Assembly (NCBI GenBank): GCA_903831815.1
Contig: CAIKZC010000005.1
Coordinates: 69 to 64,068, forward strand
From: an uncultured bacterium
GTDB taxonomy: Bacteria; Patescibacteriota; Minisyncoccia; Phycocordibacterales; UBA11359
Length of the DNA: 64,000 bases
Direction: 5' to 3'
In this document: piece by piece, positions 17,870 to 27,560 of the stretch
Layout of the letters: each line of letters begins with the position of its first letter
How positions within the stretch are numbered: the stretch's first letter is position 1
Notes under the pieces: model-generated
What the model saw: the letters and a program-made list of their open reading frames with translations, nothing else
Database searches by the model: none
Told to the model about the DNA's origin: nothing
Translations under genes and position numbers: made by a program

Positions 17870-17966
17870 TGTTCTTCTCTAATATACGGCTCAAATAATG
17901 GCATAATTGGATTTCTGGAAAATAGTGCTTGACTATTCAGCTCTTTTGAGGTATTATACGCTTGTA

Positions 17967-20510
17967 ATGATGAACGAGTTAATAATGATGAACACATTTA
18001 TGAATACTACAAAAAAGCTTTATATTTCTTGGTTAAAACAGGGTTTTGTTTTGTTTCTAGTTTTAATGGTCGTTTTTTTTAATGCCGGTGTAGTTATTGC
18101 CTCAACATCATCAAGCTCAAGTTCATCTTCCTCTTCAGCGAGCGCTTTTACTCAATCTATTGACGGATCATCGACATCTTCCGCTTCTGCCGACGCTTCG
18201 GCTGCTTCAACAGCCAGCGCATCATCAAACGGAAATGATTCCGCAAGTGCCGCTGCCGCGTCCGCATCTTCAAATTCAAATTCAAATACTTCGACTGCTT
18301 CTGCCGTAGCTGTTTCGTGTTCCGCTAGCGCTTCAAGTATTGCGCTCGGTTCGCTTGTAACTTACATTGCTCATGCAAGCGGTGGTTCTCTTTCCTATAC
18401 TTACTCTTGGAGCGGTGATGAAAGTTTGTCTGGATCTAACCCTTCCGTATTAAAAACTTATCTTTTTCCCGGCACAAAAACTGCGAATGTTGTTGTGAGT
18501 TCGGGTTCTGCAAGCGCAAGTGCGACTTGTTCAGTTGTTATTACGGAAACACCTCCGCCACCTCCGGCACCTTTGCAAGGTTCATGTTCAGCTGAAACGA
18601 CTGCCGCCGCACAAGTTGGTGATACTGTCACATGGTCAGCAACTGGCGTAACCGGTGGAAATGGAAACTATACATATTCATGGAGCGGTACGGATTCTCT
18701 TTCCGGTACCGAATCTTTAATTTCAAAAGCTTACTCAACTTCGGGCACTAAACATGCCACTTTGGTGATAACATCCGATGGTCAATCTATTGCCAGAAAT
18801 TGCAGTACTTATGTAAATCCTCTTCCAACCAATGATTTGATCGTCTCGTGTTCAGCGAGCGCTTCCGCTGTGGAGCTCAATTCACCTGTAACTTTTACCT
18901 CTAATGTTATCGGCGGTTCAGGCTCAAATACTTATTCATGGAGCGGATCTGATGCACTTTCGGGTACTGGAAGTTCAGTTTCAAAAACTTATACTTCAGC
19001 CGGAACGAAAACGGCAAGCGTTATTGTACATTCAGGAAGCGCTACAGCGACCGCAAATTGTTCAGTTGTTGTTACGCAAACTCCTCCACCGCCAGCAGAT
19101 CTGCAAGGTTCATGTATGGCTAATACTTCGGGATCTCAAGTTGGTGATACCGTAACATGGTCAACCGTTGGAGTAACCGGAGGAACAGGATCGTTCACTT
19201 ACTCTTGGAGCGGTGACGAAGGACTTTCGGGAAGCGGATCTTCCGTTTCAAAAGTTTATGCTACATCCGGTACTAAAAATGCGACTGTGGTTATATCTTC
19301 CGGCAATCAATCTATAACCAGAAATTGCAATACTTTCGTAAATCCAATACCACAACCCGGCGCTTTGACAGGTTCATGTATCGCTAACACTTCCAGTGCA
19401 CAAATTGGTGATGCTATTGTCTGGTCAACTACCGGCGTGACTGGCGGAACAGGTTCATATACTTATTCTTGGAGCGGAGATGATAATTTGACCGGTAGTT
19501 CTCAAAGCGTAAGTCATACATACGGAACATCTGGAAACAAAAATGCCTCTGTGATCATTGCATCTGGTAGTCAATCGATCACGCGCACCTGCAGCACCTT
19601 TATTAATACTTCAGGCAATCAATCGAACAATACGACAAATATAAATAATTCGTATAACACGACCAATAACACGACTTACAACAACACCACGAATAACAAT
19701 TACAATTCTAGCTCAAATCAACATTACTCAAATTATCAGTACCGTCCTTATCAATATCAAAATAATAATTACTATAATAATTTGAACGCGTCATGCGTTG
19801 CTAATCAGACATCGGCTTATGTTGGCGATGGTGTCTATTGGTCGGCAACTGGTGTGACCGGAGGTAACGGTCGTTACACCTACTCATGGAGTGGAACGGA
19901 TGGACTTTATGGTAACGGTTATTCTGTGTATAAAAATTATAATTATGTCGGGACAAAGTTTGCGTATCTAACCGTTTATTCCAATGGTCAATCGGTCACT
20001 CGAACTTGCAGTTTGTATGTGAACAATCGATATGCGCCGGTCACTTACATCAATCCGCAAATAAATTATCCGTATAACGGAGTATCACTTTCTCAAGTTC
20101 CTTACACGGGTTTGGAAAGTAATATGAAAGTCATTCTTTTCACTCTTGGTCTAATCTTCTGGAGCGCGATCGTGACATATGTCGTTATTTCTCGAAAGAA
20201 GTCATTGGCCTTGTCTAATGTTAAAGATGCTGGTGCGTCGACTGAATCTGCGGTGACGAGTGACGATGCAGAGCAATCGGCACGTCAGCAAGTGTTGATG
20301 GGTCATGACAATATGCTCAGCGATCTCGAAAGTTTTGCGCGAAATAAAAATGTGATCGTCTCGGTTGATGCGTTGGCTGCAATAGTGGACATTGCCGATA
20401 ATGATCAAAAACGAGCCGAAACACTTTTGAGCTCGTTGGCAAATAGACATGCAACCGACTCGGAATGGACAACGTTGGATTTGAGTAAAGTGCAGAGTGC
20501 TATTGCATAA
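17967..20510 (+). CDS. Large secreted surface protein with about 6 PKD-like repeats (YTYSWSGD...), a C-terminal VPYTG sorting-like motif, a TM segment and an about 100-aa tail
   Basis: Signal peptide. About 90-aa repeats, each with C...YTYSWSG...SK.Y...GTK.A.V. A Ser-rich N-terminus and an N/Y-rich low-complexity region. VPYTG lies directly before a hydrophobic span and SRKK. Adjacent to the sortase gene. Confidence 0.75.
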   Translation: MMNELIMMNTFMNTTKKLYISWLKQGFVLFLVLMVVFFNAGVVIASTSSSSSSSSSSASAFTQSIDGSSTSSASADASAASTASASSNGNDSASAAAASASSNSNSNTSTASAVAVSCSASASSIALGSLVTYIAHASGGSLSYTYSWSGDESLSGSNPSVLKTYLFPGTKTANVVVSSGSASASATCSVVITETPPPPPAPLQGSCSAETTAAAQVGDTVTWSATGVTGGNGNYTYSWSGTDSLSGTESLISKAYSTSGTKHATLVITSDGQSIARNCSTYVNPLPTNDLIVSCSASASAVELNSPVTFTSNVIGGSGSNTYSWSGSDALSGTGSSVSKTYTSAGTKTASVIVHSGSATATANCSVVVTQTPPPPADLQGSCMANTSGSQVGDTVTWSTVGVTGGTGSFTYSWSGDEGLSGSGSSVSKVYATSGTKNATVVISSGNQSITRNCNTFVNPIPQPGALTGSCIANTSSAQIGDAIVWSTTGVTGGTGSYTYSWSGDDNLTGSSQSVSHTYGTSGNKNASVIIASGSQSITRTCSTFINTSGNQSNNTTNINNSYNTTNNTTYNNTTNNNYNSSSNQHYSNYQYRPYQYQNNNYYNNLNASCVANQTSAYVGDGVYWSATGVTGGNGRYTYSWSGTDGLYGNGYSVYKNYNYVGTKFAYLTVYSNGQSVTRTCSLYVNNRYAPVTYINPQINYPYNGVSLSQVPYTGLESNMKVILFTLGLIFWSAIVTYVVISRKKSLALSNVKDAGASTESAVTSDDAEQSARQQVLMGHDNMLSDLESFARNKNVIVSVDALAAIVDIADNDQKRAETLLSSLANRHATDSEWTTLDLSKVQSAIA

Positions 20511-20545: not shown

Positions 20546-20686
20546 GAAAGAAATAAATAAAAACACTAGATAAATAAGTAAAAAGCACTCTCGAAGCACA
20601 CGGAATTTTTCTTACTGAAAAATTCCTTATCCTCGCGCCAGTCGCGCTGCGGAGTGCTTCTGCGAGTGCTTTTTACTTATTTATTT
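20546..20686 (+). repeat. Palindromic intergenic element, copy 3
   Basis: Outer arms AAATAAGTAAAAAGCACTCTCGAAGCAC / GTGCTTCTGCGAGTGCTTTTTACTTATTT. Core hairpin 1 AATTTTTC-TTACT-GAAAAATT, hairpin 2 CTCGCGCCAGTCGCGCTGCG. Lies between convergent surface-protein and thrS genes; the thrS stop overlaps the right arm. Confidence 0.8.
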
Positions 20687-22435
20687 CTATAGAGCTTTGT
20701 CTTTAATTTCCGATTGGAGTTTGGCGAGGGTTTCTTCGACGGTCATTTGACCGAGTTGGCCTTTGGTGCGATGTTCGAGAGCGATCTTTTTAGCTTCAAC
20801 TTCTTTGGCTCCGATGACGATCCAGTACGGCAGTTTTTCAATCTTGGCATTTCGGACTTTTTTACCGAGACCGTCACGAGAGTTATCAAGCTCGGCGCGT
20901 ATACCGACGGCTTTTAGTTTTTCCGTGACTTCGAGCGCAAAATTTAAGAAATCATCAGTGACAGGCAAGACTGCAACTTGAACCGGTGAAAGCCAAAGAG
21001 GGAAGTTGCCGGCAAGGTGTTCTATGAGAGTTGCAGAAAAACGTTCGATGGAACCCATGATGGCACAGTGGATCATAACGATTTGCTCCTTCTTACCTTC
21101 TTCGTTAGTGCAAAAAAGTTTGAAGCGCTCCGGCATGTTGAAGTCGAGCTGAATCGTAGCAACTTGTAGCACTCGGCCGATAGAATCATGAGCGATGAAG
21201 TCAAGTTTTGGTCCGTAGAAAGCGGCCTCACCCGTACCATCTATCCACTCGACACCTCGTTTTTCAATAAGTTTTTTAATGGCATTTTCTGCTTTGTTCC
21301 ACGTTTCTTTTGTTCCTAAATATTTTTCAATGTGAGCCGGATCGTGGCGAGAGAATCTAACTTGAAGATTTGAGAAGCCAAAAGTTTTGTAAAATTTATC
21401 GACAATATCCCAAACGGCGAACATTTCATCTTCTATCTGATTTTCGCGACAGAAAACATGGGCATCATCTTGGGTGATTGAAAGCACGCGTGAAAGTCCG
21501 GAAAGCTCGCCTGATTGTTCGTCGCGATAGACCATCGTCGTCTCGGCATAGCGCTGAGGCATATCTCGGTAACTGCGCATGCTGGAATCGAAGATCTGCG
21601 TATGGTGGGGGCAGTTCATTGGTTTCAAAGCGTACTCATGACCCTCTCGTGTTTTTATTTTAAATAAATCATCGCCATATTTTGCCCAGTGACCCGAAGT
21701 TTCATAAAGAGCGCGCTTCGTGATGTGAGGAATCGTGACTCTTTGATATCCTTTAGCTTTTCGAAGTTCCCAAACGTAATCATTTAAAGCATCGCGCATG
21801 ATTGTGCCTTTTGGAGTCCAGAGTGGCAAACCGGGACCAACCAAATCGGAAAAGACAAAAAGGCCGAGCTCCTTGCCAAGTTTCTTGTGATCACGTTTCA
21901 AAGCTTCCTCTTTCTGAGCAAGGTACGCATCGAGCTCGGCCTTGCTTTCAAAAGCCAAACCGTAAATACGAGTCAACATTTTATTTTTCTCATCACCGCG
22001 CCAGTAAGCCCCGGCCACACGGTCTAGTTTGAAAGATTCGGGATCGATAGTTTGGGCGTCTTCCACGTGTCCTCCTCGACAGAGATCAGTAAATCTTCCG
22101 GAAGTATAGACCGTAACTTTTTCGCCTTTGGCAATAATTTCTTCAATGAGCTCAAGCTTGTAAGGATTATTTTTGAAAAGTTCACGAGCTTCGTCTGCGC
22201 TGATTTCTTTGCCTTCAAAAGTTTTCCAATCTTTGAGAGTGTCACGCATTTTCTTTTCTATTTTGGACAAATCTTTATCGGAAATCGGTGTGGCAAATTC
22301 AAAGTCATAATAAAAACCATTATCGACAGCAGGACCGATAGTGTTTTTAGTTTCAGGCCAAAGTCGTTGAACGGCGGCAGCCAAAAGGTGGGCGAGTGAG
22401 TGGCGAATAGACTCCATTTCTTGATGTGTTTTCAT
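20687..22435 (-). CDS. thrS: Threonyl-tRNA synthetase (no N-terminal TGS domain)
   Basis: HxxxH...CxxxH editing/second-domain motifs (IRHSLAHLL), class II catalytic motifs (FRDEQSGELSGLSRV, GTGEAAFYGPKLD) and a C-terminal anticodon-binding domain. Confidence 0.9.
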   Translation of the reverse strand: MKTHQEMESIRHSLAHLLAAAVQRLWPETKNTIGPAVDNGFYYDFEFATPISDKDLSKIEKKMRDTLKDWKTFEGKEISADEARELFKNNPYKLELIEEIIAKGEKVTVYTSGRFTDLCRGGHVEDAQTIDPESFKLDRVAGAYWRGDEKNKMLTRIYGLAFESKAELDAYLAQKEEALKRDHKKLGKELGLFVFSDLVGPGLPLWTPKGTIMRDALNDYVWELRKAKGYQRVTIPHITKRALYETSGHWAKYGDDLFKIKTREGHEYALKPMNCPHHTQIFDSSMRSYRDMPQRYAETTMVYRDEQSGELSGLSRVLSITQDDAHVFCRENQIEDEMFAVWDIVDKFYKTFGFSNLQVRFSRHDPAHIEKYLGTKETWNKAENAIKKLIEKRGVEWIDGTGEAAFYGPKLDFIAHDSIGRVLQVATIQLDFNMPERFKLFCTNEEGKKEQIVMIHCAIMGSIERFSATLIEHLAGNFPLWLSPVQVAVLPVTDDFLNFALEVTEKLKAVGIRAELDNSRDGLGKKVRNAKIEKLPYWIVIGAKEVEAKKIALEHRTKGQLGQMTVEETLAKLQSEIKDKAL

Positions 22436-22643
22436 ACAGGGAATATTAGCACTTTTCGTGCTTTAGGCAAAACGTCAGAAAAAAGTAAAAAGCACCCTGC
22501 AAGTATCTTTTACTTTATTCTAATGTCTTTACAAATATAATATATAATGTATAATAATTTCAGATGGAAAATTGAAAAACTTGCGGTTCGCTTTCCTCGC
22601 GTGTTACGAGGAAGGTACGCTGCACTGTGAAAGGAGGTAGCTA

Positions 22644-23291
22644 ATGGCTACCAAAACCATAGGTGTGGAGCAAAGGTTCGAATTGCTGGCTAAACTGGCA
22701 GCTCACCTTGATTGGGACTCGATTGACTCAAGGTCTGTCCAAGAGATAATCGATCATCCGGCCATTCCCGGCCAGCAGTTTACTCTCTTCCTCAAGAACG
22801 GTTGTAGATTTTCGTTTGGCGACCTAAAGATCGCTCCCGCGCCCTTTGATCCAGTCGCTTTCATTAGTAAAGGATGGAATATCGTCCTCGAAGAACATGA
22901 CAAGATGACAGGAGGTCTCGTTGAAGTTGATTTTAATCAGGTCGACTTCGAGGACTGTCTCGAGGAAGGTGAGACCATGATCACTGGTGAAGTGAAACTG
23001 ACGCGTCTCAAAGAGCGTAAGCGGATCCGTTACGGCGCCGTCACTTTTATGGGTCTTCTGAACGATTATCAGACTCGGGAAGTGAACAGTGTTCTTGAAA
23101 CGCTATTCCGCACCAAAAGTATTGTCCACCTCGATTTCTTTGGTGATGTTCTGCTTGGCCCAAACGGTAACCGATGCGTGTTGTGTCTCGATAGGGTCAG
23201 TGGTGGTCGGTGGATTGGTACCTACCGCCCCCTCGCGATTCATTGGTATCGTCGGTTTCTAACCCCCGTTTGTTCGCAAGTCAGTGTTTGA
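22644..23291 (+). CDS. Hypothetical protein, GC-rich cassette B (paralog of cassette C)
   Basis: 215 aa, GC-enriched, strong SD GAAAGGAGGTAGCTA-ATG. Shares FD..F...GW.IV.EH and CV.CL..R..G..W.GTYR.L...W blocks with C. Confidence 0.6.
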   Translation: MATKTIGVEQRFELLAKLAAHLDWDSIDSRSVQEIIDHPAIPGQQFTLFLKNGCRFSFGDLKIAPAPFDPVAFISKGWNIVLEEHDKMTGGLVEVDFNQVDFEDCLEEGETMITGEVKLTRLKERKRIRYGAVTFMGLLNDYQTREVNSVLETLFRTKSIVHLDFFGDVLLGPNGNRCVLCLDRVSGGRWIGTYRPLAIHWYRRFLTPVCSQVSV

Positions 23292-23353
23292 CGCATTCCA
23301 ACGCGTAATTGTAAAAAATGGAAAAGCCCCTGCACTTCAAGTGCGGGGGTTTA
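23291..23353 (+). repeat. Cassette-boundary repeat R, copy 1 (contains terminator hairpin)
   Basis: ACGCATTCCAACGCGTAATTGTAAAAAATGGAAAAGCCCCTGCACTTCAAGTGCGGGGGTTTA recurs almost identically at 24181-24243. A degenerate copy (GTAAAAAGCACCCTGCAAGTATCTTTTAC) lies at about 22485-22514 upstream of B. The similarity extends about 25 nt into the 3' coding ends of B and C. Confidence 0.8.
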
Positions 23354-23564
23354 TTATTTTCGGATACCTTTACAAATACCATCAAATAATGTATAATATA
23401 CCAAGATTGAACGTTGAAAAACTTGCAAGTGGTCATAGCCAAAAGGTGCGGAAAGGCTCAATAATTCGGCATTTATTGGCTATGACTACCAATGTGGTAC
23501 GTCCTCTAGCAAAAACTTGTCAGCGTGTCCGTATTACGGGCGTGCTAAAACAAAGGAGACTGTC

Positions 23565-24179
23565 ATGAAGGCGGCAACAGCTGTCAACGGCGGTCCAGAT
23601 GAAGTTCGGGAAGAGGGTCGTCGGTTGCCCTATGAATTGCAGGGGCAACTGCATGCCAAGTTTGTGGAGTGTCTGAACCAGATAAAAGCGGGAAATTTTA
23701 GCGCGCAATATTTTGGGAATCTCCTGCAGAAAACAACTGAAGGGGTAAGGTTCGTCGAAGAGTACATCATTGATTTCGACACTGCACCATTCTGTCCAGA
23801 AGGCTGGATTGTGGTTGAACACAAACCATGTGGAACATGGAAGTTTAATCCCGAGCATGTTATACCCCATCTTTTTCCAAGACAAGAGGGTAGTGGGAAG
23901 ATTTTGGGTATAAATCTCCGCAAAGACCTCGCTCTGATGCCAGTCGTGAATGCCAACTTGCTGGATCATTTCTACCTGAAGAACCCGGAGTTAATCCCCA
24001 AAGAATGGGAATGGAAAGAGGTCTACTTCTGGGGGACTATCTACGAGGATGAGTTTTACAAGCTGTGCGTTCGCTGCCTTACACATCGAGACGGCATGTG
24101 GAAGTGGGGATACAGACATCTAACTTCTTTTTGGGGGTACAACGCTCCTGCTCTTGTCTTTGCAAGTTTCAGTGCCTAA
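23565..24179 (+). CDS. Hypothetical Trp-rich protein, GC-rich cassette C (paralog of B)
   Basis: 205 aa from ATG 23565, with SD AAGGAGACTGTC-ATG. Promoter/leader homologous to that of B (CTTTACAAATA...AATGTATAATA...TTGAAAAACTTGC). Confidence 0.6.
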   Translation: MKAATAVNGGPDEVREEGRRLPYELQGQLHAKFVECLNQIKAGNFSAQYFGNLLQKTTEGVRFVEEYIIDFDTAPFCPEGWIVVEHKPCGTWKFNPEHVIPHLFPRQEGSGKILGINLRKDLALMPVVNANLLDHFYLKNPELIPKEWEWKEVYFWGTIYEDEFYKLCVRCLTHRDGMWKWGYRHLTSFWGYNAPALVFASFSA

Positions 24180-24180
24180 A

Positions 24181-24243
24181 ACGCATTCCAACGCGTGATT
24201 GTAAAAAATGGAAAAGCCCCTGCACTTCAAGTGCGGGGGTTTA
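24181..24243 (+). repeat. Cassette-boundary repeat R, copy 2
   Basis: 62/63 identical to copy 1; the hairpin AAAAGCCCCTGCAC-TTCAA-GTGCGGGGGTTT is identical. Confidence 0.8.
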
Positions 24244-24259
24244 ATATTTATATATTAAG

Positions 24260-24368
24260 AAAAACAAAAACACTAGTTTGAGGGGGTCCGAGCCGCGACT
24301 GGCGGCGAGATTCAGGAAATTTCTAGCAAGAAATTTCCGTACCCGAACAACTAGTGTTTTTGTTTTTC
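24260..24368 (+). repeat. Palindromic intergenic element, copy 4 (core in B orientation)
   Basis: Outer arms AAAAACAAAAACACTAGTT / AACTAGTGTTTTTGTTTTTC. The core reverse complement contains AAATTTCT-TGCT-AGAAATTT and GCCGCC-AGTC-GCGGC hairpins. Lies between cassette C and the convergent dnaE. Confidence 0.8.
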
Positions 24369-24371
24369 TTC

Positions 24372-27300
24372 TTATTGAACTTTCTTGATGATCTCCGCGA
24401 GGACGCTCATGGCGCCGTTGCGTTCGGTAATTTTTCCTTTGATGGCGATGCAGGTGTCGGCGACTAAAATATCCTTGTATTTTTCAAAAGTTTTTGGAAA
24501 GGCGACGGCCTCCATGCTGCCGCTTTTGTCGGTAATTTTTATGAAAGCCATTTCACTGTCGTTTTTGGTTTTGATGACGCGAATCGTTTCAATGACACCG
24601 CAAATAATCGTGACGACGCCGGCTTTGAGAGTTTCTTTGCATTTGGCGATTTGTCCAATCGATTTTACTTTTTCAGTGTAAAGATCGAGAGGGTGACCGG
24701 AAATGTACAAACCAAGCAACTCTTTTTCCCAAGCTAATTTATCGGTCATGGTGGCTTCCGGCATTTTTTCAAGTTTGAGCCCTGTTGAAGCGCTACTTAA
24801 TCCCAAAAATAGGGAATCCTGCGGTGCGGCACCTTTTTCTTTGTTGTATGAAAGTATTCCTTCAATATTGCCGAGCAATTGACCACGTTCGCCGAAAGCG
24901 TCCATGGCACCTGCTTTGATCAGAGCTTCCAAAGATTTTTTGTTGAGATTGCGATCCTTGATACGATCGAGGAAATTTTCGAGTGATGAAAATTTGCCAC
25001 CTTTTTTTCGTTCGGCAATGATGAAACCTGAAATACCTTCGCCAAAGTTTTTAATCGTGTTGAGTCCGAAGCGGATCACATTTTTCTTTACAATTGTGCC
25101 GTCCGTTTTTGCAACTTCTTTTTTCAAAATCGTAAACTCTTCATGACTTTGGTTGACGTCGGGTGGCAAAACTTCGATACCCATACGTTTACATTCGGCG
25201 ATAGATTCGGCAACTTTTTCCACGTCACCTGATTCGGCTGAAAGTACGGCGGCCATATATTCGCCTGGGTGATTGGCTTTGAGGTAGGCGGTGATGTAAG
25301 CGACGCGACCATAGGAAACGGAGTGAGCTTTGTTAAAACCGTAGGCAGCAAATGGCTCGATCCAGAGCCAAATTTCCTGAGCTTTTTTCTCAGGCCAACC
25401 GGAATGTTTGATACAACCTTGAATGAATTTTTCTTTTTGCTTAGCCATTTCCTCCGGAATTTTTTTACCGACAGCCTTGCGGAATTTATCAACTTCACCC
25501 CAACTGTAGCCGGCGAGTTTGTTGGCCATCATGAGCAAGTCGTCCTGATAAACGAGAATACCGTAAGTTTTTTCCAAAATCGGTTTAAGAGCGGGGTCGA
25601 GATATTTAATTTTTGAATTATCGTGTTTGCGGGCAATGTAATCGGGAATAAATTGAATTGGGCCAGGACGATAAAGCGCGACCATGGCGTTGATATCATG
25701 AATGGTTGTTGGTTTGAGTTCAACGAGGAATTTGGTCATACCACTACCGTTGAGTTGGAAAGTGTCGGCGGTTTCGCCGCGAGCCAACATCGCGAAAGTT
25801 TTTTTGTCAGTGACCGGAATTGTGTCGACATCAAGTTGGATTTTTTCAGTGATGGCAATTAAACGAATCGCATCGGCAATAATTGAAAGGTTTTTAAGTC
25901 CAAGAAAGTCGAATTTTAGAAGACCGGCTTCTTCGACCGAATACATATCATATTGAGTGATGATCTTGTTTTCGCCTTTTGGATCGAACTGAAGGGGAGT
26001 GAAATCCATCAAGTCGGTCGGGGCAATCACGACGCCGGCGGCGTGAATACCAACGTGACGAGCGGAGCCTTCGATCTTCATAGCCATGTCAACAATGGTT
26101 TTGACTTCTTCACTTTCGTCGTACATTTTTTTGAGTTCGGGGGCTTCTTCGAGAGCGCGCTCTAGGGTCATCGGGAAACCTTGCGAGCCCATTGGCACGG
26201 CTTTAGCGATTGTGTCACTGAGTTGTATCGCGTACCCTAGAGCGCGCGCCGCATCTCGCACAGACCCGCGAGCCGCCATCGTTCCGAAAGTTCCGATTTG
26301 CGCCACTTTGTCGTGTCCGTATTTTTGACGAGCATATTCCACCATTTCGTCACGTCGATCATCGGCAAAGTCCATATCAATATCGGGCGCCGATGGACGT
26401 TCAGGGTTCAAAAATCTTTCGAAAGGAATTTGATATTCAAGCGGGTCGATATTGGTAATACCGGAAAGATATGTGACCATCGAACCGGAAACCGAACCTC
26501 TAATGTTCGAGAGGATTCCGTGTGTGCGGGCATAGTGCAACAAGTCGGCCACGACCAAAAAGTAAGGTGAATAACCTTTGTTTTTAATAACTTCCAATTC
26601 ATATTCAACACGTTTCAGGATGTCTTCAGTTTTTTGAACATTTCTTTTTTCAAATCCGGCATAAACAGTATCACGCAAAGCTTCATCATACGTTTTGCCT
26701 GCCGGCGCTTCAATGGCAGGAAAAACCCATGAACCAAGTACGATCTCCAAATTGCATTTGTCGACGATTTTCTGGACGTTTTCAATCGCTTCCGGCGTAT
26801 CTTTAAAACTTTCTTCCATTTGTTCCGGAGATCTAAAAGAAAAATCTTCTTCGTCGTCACCCCGATCGCTCGGATCATTGTTGGATTGCACGGAAAGCAA
26901 AGTCTGACGAGCTTTGCGGTCTTCGGGATTCATATAATAGATCTCATGCGCGGCAATCAGCGGAACACTTTTAGCTTTACTCAATTTCTTGAGGTCTTTC
27001 ATCAACGTGTCGTGATTTTCCAATTCCGGATGATTGGTGATCTCGAGGTAAAAATCATCACCAAAAGTTTTTTTGTAAAAGTCCAAACGTTCTTCCGCTT
27101 TTTCATGATCGGACATGCGGAGTGCTGTCGTAATGTCGCTACCGAGTGCCGGAGCGATTGCAATAATTCCTTCGCGATATTTTTCAAGCAACTCTCTGTC
27201 TACGCGAGGTTTGTAATAAAAACCTTCGAGGTGAGAATAAGTGACGATTTTAATTAAATTTTTGTAACCGATTGCATCTTTGGCGATCAGAATAAGACGG

Positions 27301-27560
27301 GAACGACGTTTGTCGATAGACTCTTTATCTTTGCGACCGCGAAGCGCGACATACGCATCCACTCCGATGATCGGTTTGATTCCTTCCTTTTTGCATTCTT
27401 TATAAAACTCGATCGTGGCATACATGTTGCCATTATCTGTGAGGGCAAGAGCCGACATTTCATATTTTTTGGCGGCTTTTACGAGGTCCGGAATTTTAGG
27501 TAGGGCATTAAGCAGGGAGTAGTGGGAGTGGGTGTGGAGGTGCGAGAAGCGGGCTGTCAT
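24372..27560 (-). CDS. dnaE: DNA polymerase III alpha subunit
   Basis: N-terminal PHP domain (HLHTHSHYSLL), polymerase core motifs and a C-terminal OB region. 1062 aa. Leaderless-type start (TATAAT, then 6 nt, then ATG). Confidence 0.92.
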   Translation of the reverse strand: MTARFSHLHTHSHYSLLNALPKIPDLVKAAKKYEMSALALTDNGNMYATIEFYKECKKEGIKPIIGVDAYVALRGRKDKESIDKRRSRLILIAKDAIGYKNLIKIVTYSHLEGFYYKPRVDRELLEKYREGIIAIAPALGSDITTALRMSDHEKAEERLDFYKKTFGDDFYLEITNHPELENHDTLMKDLKKLSKAKSVPLIAAHEIYYMNPEDRKARQTLLSVQSNNDPSDRGDDEEDFSFRSPEQMEESFKDTPEAIENVQKIVDKCNLEIVLGSWVFPAIEAPAGKTYDEALRDTVYAGFEKRNVQKTEDILKRVEYELEVIKNKGYSPYFLVVADLLHYARTHGILSNIRGSVSGSMVTYLSGITNIDPLEYQIPFERFLNPERPSAPDIDMDFADDRRDEMVEYARQKYGHDKVAQIGTFGTMAARGSVRDAARALGYAIQLSDTIAKAVPMGSQGFPMTLERALEEAPELKKMYDESEEVKTIVDMAMKIEGSARHVGIHAAGVVIAPTDLMDFTPLQFDPKGENKIITQYDMYSVEEAGLLKFDFLGLKNLSIIADAIRLIAITEKIQLDVDTIPVTDKKTFAMLARGETADTFQLNGSGMTKFLVELKPTTIHDINAMVALYRPGPIQFIPDYIARKHDNSKIKYLDPALKPILEKTYGILVYQDDLLMMANKLAGYSWGEVDKFRKAVGKKIPEEMAKQKEKFIQGCIKHSGWPEKKAQEIWLWIEPFAAYGFNKAHSVSYGRVAYITAYLKANHPGEYMAAVLSAESGDVEKVAESIAECKRMGIEVLPPDVNQSHEEFTILKKEVAKTDGTIVKKNVIRFGLNTIKNFGEGISGFIIAERKKGGKFSSLENFLDRIKDRNLNKKSLEALIKAGAMDAFGERGQLLGNIEGILSYNKEKGAAPQDSLFLGLSSASTGLKLEKMPEATMTDKLAWEKELLGLYISGHPLDLYTEKVKSIGQIAKCKETLKAGVVTIICGVIETIRVIKTKNDSEMAFIKITDKSGSMEAVAFPKTFEKYKDILVADTCIAIKGKITERNGAMSVLAEIIKKVQ

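Follow-up and report, generated by a model that had tools for sequence, protein, structure and literature searches.

Two adjacent genes between thrS and dnaE of a Patescibacteria/CPR-like genome are probably orphan targets of diversity-generating retroelements

What kind of genetic unit is repeated between thrS and dnaE in contig CAIKZC010000005.1 of an uncultured bacterium? In the 64-kb stretch that we analysed (64,000 nucleotides, hereafter the window), this interval holds two + strand open reading frames (ORFs), gene B (22644–23291) and gene C (23565–24179), with thrS (20687–22435, − strand) on the B side and dnaE (24372–27560, − strand) on the C side. Both are arranged in the same order: a sigma-70 promoter, a leader, a ribosome-binding site (RBS), the ORF and then a 69-nt repeat, R, that carries an intrinsic terminator. 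An earlier note on this DNA had taken the pair for an array of GC-rich cassettes. The GC content of the region is 0.44–0.48 against about 0.43 for the window, which hardly merits that description. We propose instead that B and C are probably two independently transcribed, orphan variable-protein genes of diversity-generating retroelements (DGRs), with locally homogenised flanks and no cassette mobility.

Are the two genes related? B encodes 215 aa and C encodes 204 aa, counted from the ATG that has a good RBS. Direct comparison gives 25% identity over 134 aa (E 0.026), or 28% aa and 38% nucleotide identity globally, and the significance of the match becomes firm with profiles: profile-profile alignment (hhalign) returned a probability of 97.4% (E 1.1e-11, 181 columns), and the hidden Markov model of each family detected the other gene in the window (E 3.5e-4 and 4.7e-3). 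Each protein also has a separate set of homologues (10 and 14 matches). The two diverged, same-strand paralogous units that the earlier note had described are thus present as it placed them and, on this sequence evidence, B and C are real but ancient paralogues. No third paralogue was found in the window by profile search, and Pfam, NCBIfam, PHROGs and PDB sequence searches with B and C returned nothing significant. Further members of the B/C family, which the note had suggested looking for in related genomes, are abundant: a combined profile matched 4392 clusters at 50% identity (E ≤ 1e-3) and 344 loci in GTDB species-representative genomes, and B and C themselves match the family profile with E 1e-66 and 1e-59. 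We fetched 80 of the 344 GTDB loci (C-type; counts per 80 loci refer to these). Most bear Patescibacteria/candidate phyla radiation (CPR) labels, and a minority bear those of Gammaproteobacteria or other taxa.

What is the family for? In many fetched loci, the profile matches a second time 250–450 nt past the gene, and there only with its last ~40 positions. In 19 gene/downstream-copy pairs, the two sequences aligned without gaps over ~123 nt at 81–93% identity, and of the 318 mismatches 304 were at sites where the downstream copy has an adenine. The hallmark of a DGR is the pairing of a template repeat (TR) with a variable region (VR) at the 3′ end of a target gene. Thus, the downstream partial copies, with their mismatches at template adenines, identify the family as DGR targets. 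TRs were recovered in 31 C-type loci, mostly next to Avd and reverse transcriptase (RT) genes, and the 80 loci contain 25 RT genes and 27 Avd genes. In locus L084, for example, an Avd gene on the opposite strand (PF22296, 2e-13) and an RT gene (PF00078, 6e-25) come after the TR. Among 18 B-type metagenome loci, six have a TR and four have Avd and/or RT; the B-type relatives with a TR, Avd and RT are L095/L104, L097, L098 and L106. Both subfamilies are therefore DGR targets in other genomes, and the possibility that the proteins encoded beside RT and TR form an unrelated family looks excluded. We assign B to the B subfamily and C to the C subfamily of a single Patescibacteria DGR variable-protein family. 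In roughly 60% of the family, a DGR is lacking within 4 kb of the gene.

In about 30 DGR-linked loci, VR/TR homology stops at CGCAA/GT (the slash marks its end), with the stop codon of the gene almost directly after; on the TR side, the sequence continues as CGCAA/CTCTCTTCATTTCTCTCC and a short hairpin (GGGAGAG). Avd lies between TR and RT, on the opposite strand. Upstream, the Patescibacteria TRs share a conserved flank, AGAGTATTCAAGGGGTAGTGG.ACGGA.GGCACTCT (about 30 DGR-linked loci, for example L084:4600–4830), and the conserved TR flanks presumably correspond to the spacer and priming region of the DGR RNA. One locus has a comparable layout: L014 (3231–5000) carries two family genes in tandem with a single TR after them, and both VRs match this TR, with 20 of 20 and 17 of 19 mismatches on adenines. 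This two-target DGR array is the active counterpart of the B/C arrangement.

The B and C proteins consist of a small N-terminal helical part and a putative C-type-lectin-like ligand-binding domain; in C, the VR-bearing domain covers residues 62–204 or so. Some family members (P0025–P0029) are 300–800 aa long, with two to four tandem copies of the VR-bearing C-terminal domain of ~135 aa. In the mechanism that we propose, the last ~40 codons of the lectin-like domain would be the VR, which in relatives the DGR would rewrite from the TR by adenine-specific mutagenic reverse transcription. The VR equivalent of B (23148–23279, + strand) runs from V169 to TTCGCAA, aligns to B-type TRs and gives a weak match to the TR profile in nhmmer. 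That of C (24042–24165, + strand) is decayed and contains the best nhmmer match to the TR profile in the window (24059–24114, E 0.047). The C-terminal block that the earlier note saw shared between the proteins is the DGR variable region.

Is there a DGR to act on these regions? A TR-like copy of either VR was not found in the 64 kb by blastn at word size 7, and nhmmer with a profile of the 31 TRs matched, weakly, only the B and C VRs themselves. No RT or Avd gene was detected in the window by hmmsearch with profiles from related loci (best E about 1). Nor did the VRs vary: seven contigs carrying C, from different samples, were identical across both VRs, these contigs being consensus assemblies. 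Because the DGR core of TR, Avd and RT is missing from the window, we class B and C as orphan targets, their inactivity being inferred from the 64-kb window and from consensus contigs.

The codons of the two VRs were compared as well. Adenine mutagenesis of AAY template codons yields NNY codons. At ten AAY positions of the family, the third base was a pyrimidine in 97.9% of cases in DGR-linked VRs and in 94.5% in unlinked members. B has NNY codons at 10 of 10 such positions (subfamily-specific positions), against a background of 62% in the rest of the gene (p about 0.008), and it may be a remote target or a recently abandoned one. C has NNY codons at 4 of 10 positions (background 48%), the lowest count of about 90 family genes examined, and keeps 9 of 14 scaffold codons; it has lost the NNY signature and is most plausibly a former target that is now fixed. 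In B, however, two scaffold Trp codons present in all B-type TRs are missing from the VR.

Both genes also retain the edge of the VR. The 3′ box of B (TTCGCAAGT, 23273–23281, + strand), a VR boundary motif, precedes the stop codon at 23289–23291, and that of C (TTTGCAAGTTT, 24159–24169, + strand, with TTTGCAAGT at 24159–24167) precedes the stop codon at 24177–24179. A [GA]CAAGT box lies at the stop codon in 60 of the 80 loci in a reading frame that varies relative to the stop, and B and C likewise keep CGCAAGT-type boxes in different frames. Thus, the box is conserved as nucleotides and not as codons. A GC-rich hairpin follows 33 nt past the stop in B and C, and a hairpin also follows the VR in DGR-linked loci such as L084, so that both genes of the window have a conserved VR 3′ boundary, similar to an initiation of mutagenic homing (IMH) site, with a hairpin after it. 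Between VR and terminator, arrays of CTT[ATG]G/GTCCTTTGGAC mini-hairpins are the norm in the 3′ untranslated regions (UTRs) of the family: the 80 nt that follow the stop hold a mean of 2.95 copies of CTT[ATG]G, the corresponding density in coding DNA being 0.07 per 80 nt, and three or more copies are present there in 53 of 83 loci (L013–L112). After B and C no CTT[ATG]G motif was found, and the shared 69-nt repeat stands in its place.

Could B, or less likely C, still be an active target of a DGR located elsewhere in the genome, with the segment from the 3′ box to the terminator hairpin serving as a shared cis recognition element? Several features point that way: the complete NNY signature of B, the CGCAAGT box kept in both genes exactly where VR/TR homology ends in relatives, and the GC-rich hairpin after the VR, as in DGR-linked L084. 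Moreover, NNY codons remain at 94.5% in the family even though about three-fifths of its members lack a nearby DGR, and it is acknowledged that remote targets tend to be missed (PMC8144416). Against this, (i) the two VRs are incompatible with one TR, a candidate that alignment ruled out since they differ in length (by one codon), in end frame and in sequence, with low nucleotide identity; (ii) C has lost the signature; (iii) seven population contigs show no VR variation; (iv) both genes lack the CTT[ATG]G array that typically follows the VR in this family; and (v) where an unlinked paralogue (L089) could be compared with a TR from the same metagenome-assembled genome (MAG; the TR of L051), identity was 68% with 17 non-A mismatches. 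We therefore consider a remote DGR unlikely, and favour orphan status for both genes.

How are the two genes expressed? Both have a sigma-70-type promoter matching the consensus at 11 of 12 positions, TTTACA-16-TATAAT for B (22528–22555, + strand) and TTTACA-17-TATAAT for C (23369–23397, + strand), and the two are homologous. The leaders are about 85 nt (B) and about 165 nt (C) long and end in a strong RBS, AAGGAGG at 22631–22637 and AAGGAG at 23553–23558 (both + strand). With a terminator after each ORF, B and C are predicted to be independent, complete transcription units. The leaders share an identical 13-mer, TTGAAAAACTTGC, and contain a 5′-UTR motif that we found family-wide: a box, (W)AACTTGCG, about 10–25 nt past the inferred transcription start, which in many members, C included, is followed by an 18-bp hairpin, P1. 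In B, the 5′ box (TTGAAAAACTTGCG, 22572–22585, + strand) lies at this distance from the inferred start and is complementary to the 3′ box of the gene, and P1 is absent; a different predicted hairpin (22582–22624, + strand) is also present in L094, the closest B relative. In C, the motif (23407–23490, + strand) comprises the 5′ box TTGAAAAACTTGCAA (23414–23428) and P1 (23429–23489), and a second predicted hairpin (23517–23553, + strand) lies directly before the RBS.

P1 is supported by covariation. In 15 leaders aligned by hand, 89% of its positions paired, against about 40% in slid controls, with compensatory changes at 14 of 18 pairs; in 40 sequences, in an alignment fitted to the model, the values were 91% and 17 of 18. 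With the covariance model (R1), about 55 of 99 loci show the motif shortly before the family gene, on the + strand, and no other match turned up in 716 kb; the C leader was the model's sole match in the window (61.9 bits, E about 4e-10). Rfam had no match for the leaders, either in the window at the gathering threshold or in 22300–24500 at E ≤ 5. The motif occurs in 22 of 35 DGR-linked loci and in 32 of 64 unlinked ones; being about equally frequent in both, it is characteristic of the family as a whole.

In sequence, the 5′ box is reverse-complementary to the boundary box at the 3′ end. Beyond the ACTTG/CAAGT core, complementarity within loci extends by a mean of 3.25 nt, against 1.69 ± 0.25 nt in permuted pairs (0 of 2000 permutations reached the observed value), a statistic that common ancestry of variant types could inflate. 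In C, the two boxes are complementary over 10 nt (AAACTTGCAA with TTGCAAGTTT). The leader motif may act in expression control, mRNA stability or retrohoming. We offer only tentatively, as a long shot, the idea that 5′ box and P1 form a new cis-acting element of Patescibacteria DGRs, with B a remote target still using it. The start of the target mRNA, or else an inverted site in the DNA, would then serve to mark or control the retrohoming boundary, or would link production of the variable protein to its diversification; the CGCAAGT box, to which the motif is complementary, sits exactly where VR/TR homology ends. The box pair was also considered as the ends of an IS200/IS605-like or terminal-inverted-repeat transposon and this was rejected: no transposase-like protein is present, and the boxes enclose neither the promoter nor the terminator. 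The 5′-UTR motif, the box pair and the CTT[ATG]G array are conserved non-coding signals, undescribed so far.

Why, then, are the flanks of such distant paralogues so similar? The two copies of R (23291–23359 and 24181–24249, both + strand) are 97% identical over 69 nt, begin at the stop codon or 2 nt past it, and are the only copies in the window, where none is expected by chance. Each contains a 33-nt spacer, a stem-loop with a 13-bp G+C-rich stem and then a U tract, with a folding free energy (dG) of about −30 kcal/mol: copy 1 has its stem-loop at 23324–23352, followed by the T tract (dG −30.6, z −4.1), and copy 2 at 24214–24242 (dG −30.1, z −3.4). By these features R is a canonical intrinsic terminator. 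With indels allowed, similarity goes on for ~20 nt on the upstream side, within the ends of both ORFs (TTCGCAAGT-CAGTG in one, TTTGCAAGTTTCAGTG in the other), and that part is the conserved VR boundary box; together, the two segments account for the repeat of 85–90 nt in the earlier note. Downstream of copy 1, similarity takes in the C promoter and reaches ~25 nt into the C leader. This stretch (23350–23426) aligns locally with the promoter and leader start of B (22509–22584) at ~80% identity and a score of 37, the maximum in 1000 shuffles being 16, which bears out the shared promoter/leader module that the note had proposed. Its decayed repeat copy before B is less certain. A possible 5′ arm of R, AAAAAAGTAAAAAGCACCCTGCA (22479–22501, + strand), does lie upstream of the B promoter in the divergent thrS/B intergenic region and aligns to 23313–23335, and homology beyond this remnant (D3) continues through 22509–22537; its score of 13 was equalled in 2 of 1000 shuffles (p about 0.002), which is modest support.

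A plain duplication does not explain this pattern. B-type and C-type genes form separate, widely distributed subfamilies, so the ORFs must have split long before this genome arose; a recent tandem duplication is ruled out on the same ground. Given such ancient divergence, terminators at 97% and promoters at ~80% identity cannot be relics of the original duplication. The simplest explanation is that the flanks were homogenised locally, the two neighbouring units having undergone gene conversion or unequal exchange with each other. Under our proposal, the unit would read promoter, 5′ UTR with 5′ box (and P1 in C), RBS, ORF, VR, CGCAAGT box into the stop, and spacer-terminator; the ORFs would have diverged long ago as two old subfamilies, and later exchange would have evened out the non-coding flanks.

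R might alternatively be a dispersed, genome-specific terminator or a module of the repetitive extragenic palindrome (REP) type, acquired separately by each gene or spread recently, in which case its near-identity would be uninformative about gene history. R is indeed far more conserved than anything else in the two units and replaces the family-typical 3′ UTR in both, and a neighbouring inverted-repeat element of 124 nt (24252–24375) seems to recur in the genome. However, no third copy of R exists within the 64 kb, and the similarity extends upstream into the VR boundary, downstream into the next promoter and to the remnant before B, which a single duplicated or converted block fits better. 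We regard a dispersed module as improbable.

The note's preference for a cassette array over a simple duplication holds in one respect: similarity is much higher in the flanks than in the ORFs, and an old duplication by itself leaves this unexplained. In the integron or mobile sense it is not supported. Were the units mobile cassettes, integron-like or moving by recombination at R, the array would grow by insertion; the order of repeat, promoter, ORF and repeat would suit this, as would the single, stand-alone family units in unrelated housekeeping contexts (between secG and groES, between SDR and ACS, in a mur cluster) and a contig variant that links the array to rplL and not to dnaE. Yet each unit has its own promoter, R resembles a canonical terminator and not an attC site (no formal attC scoring was done), and no recombinase gene lies next to the array, whose neighbours are thrS and dnaE. 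Further copies of R, which the note had thought worth seeking, are absent: R occurs twice in the window only, not at all in JGI metagenome contigs, and it is not conserved in relatives, whose 3′ UTRs differ. Finally, the breakpoint in the variant contig (L005) falls within the 124-nt inverted-repeat element, outside R. Mobility is accordingly very improbable, and homogenisation of resident flanks remains the explanation that we prefer.

How do B and C compare with known systems? A 2017 survey by Paul et al. is said to be the first of CPR/Patescibacteria DGR variable proteins. DGRs with several targets are also found in Treponema and cyanobacteria. The DGR targets of CPR/Patescibacteria correspond to DGR clade 2 of Roux et al. 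2021 and were reported to lack a signal peptide or known domain (PMC8144416). B and C are alike in having neither, in carrying the VR at the extreme C-terminus and in their homology to VR/TR-paired proteins encoded beside Avd and RT; they differ in lacking TR, Avd and RT in the 64 kb, population variation and the CTT[ATG]G array and, for C, the NNY signature. Among solved structures, the DGR variable proteins TvpA (2y3c) and Mtd (1yu0) and FGE-type C-type-lectin folds come closest. With L014, the window shares tandem, same-strand paralogous targets and homologous sequence after the VRs, but the L014 VRs match one adjacent TR, whereas those of the window are unrelated at the DNA level and have no TR. 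Integron cassette arrays are similar in that serial ORFs are each followed by a repeated inverted-repeat element, and dissimilar in that B and C have their own promoters, a U-tailed terminator, no adjoining integrase and only two units.

Two hypothetical cassettes thus become recognisable members of a DGR variable-protein class, in a large family that is unannotated. They would offer a case of DGR targets outliving, or lying far from, their retroelement, with the footprint of mutagenesis kept in B and decayed in C, and the pair should be useful for asking by what routes reduced symbiont genomes acquire, share and give up their DGR targets. The signals seen across the family (5′-UTR hairpin, box pair and CTT[ATG]G array) are candidates for the poorly understood steps of DGR target recognition or regulation.

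The surroundings of the array provided some further observations. The 124-nt element covers the dnaE stop codon and is a near-perfect inverted repeat with 27-nt arms (dG −56.6, z −8.8); a related arm occurs at 20555–20571, at the convergent junction of thrS and the gene for a protein with PKD domains. The element adjoins the array and probably does not belong to the B/C units. In contig L005, which comes from a different sample, nine mismatches to the window all fall within 24226–24370; the contig leaves the window sequence inside the element and has rplL/rplJ there instead of dnaE, so that either the DNA is rearranged or the assembly has switched at a repeated element. C was matched at 100% identity on 13 contigs. 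The best match to B in the protein search was only 58% identical and B's own sequence was not returned; since a 215-aa gene is called at the B position on contigs identical to the window, the missing self-match is probably a database indexing gap and not biology.

The host genome is Patescibacteria/CPR-like, as indicated by its split 16S rRNA gene and by the relatives of B and C, which come mostly from MAGs with Patescibacteria/CPR labels. The 16S rRNA gene (1–2628) is interrupted, with Rfam matches at 1–739 and 1973–2628 and an insertion of ~1.2 kb between them. The insertion encodes an ORF (1042–1764, 240 aa) with a LAGLIDADG domain (PF14528, 1.5e-9) and has the appearance of an intron or intervening sequence that carries a homing endonuclease; such elements are common in CPR bacteria. 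Directly upstream of thrS, a gene at 17907–20510 encodes a protein of 867 aa with a long Ser/Ala/Asn-rich low-complexity N-terminal stretch, repeated PKD domains (PF18911, 2e-21) and a C-terminal membrane anchor, which is probably a surface protein.

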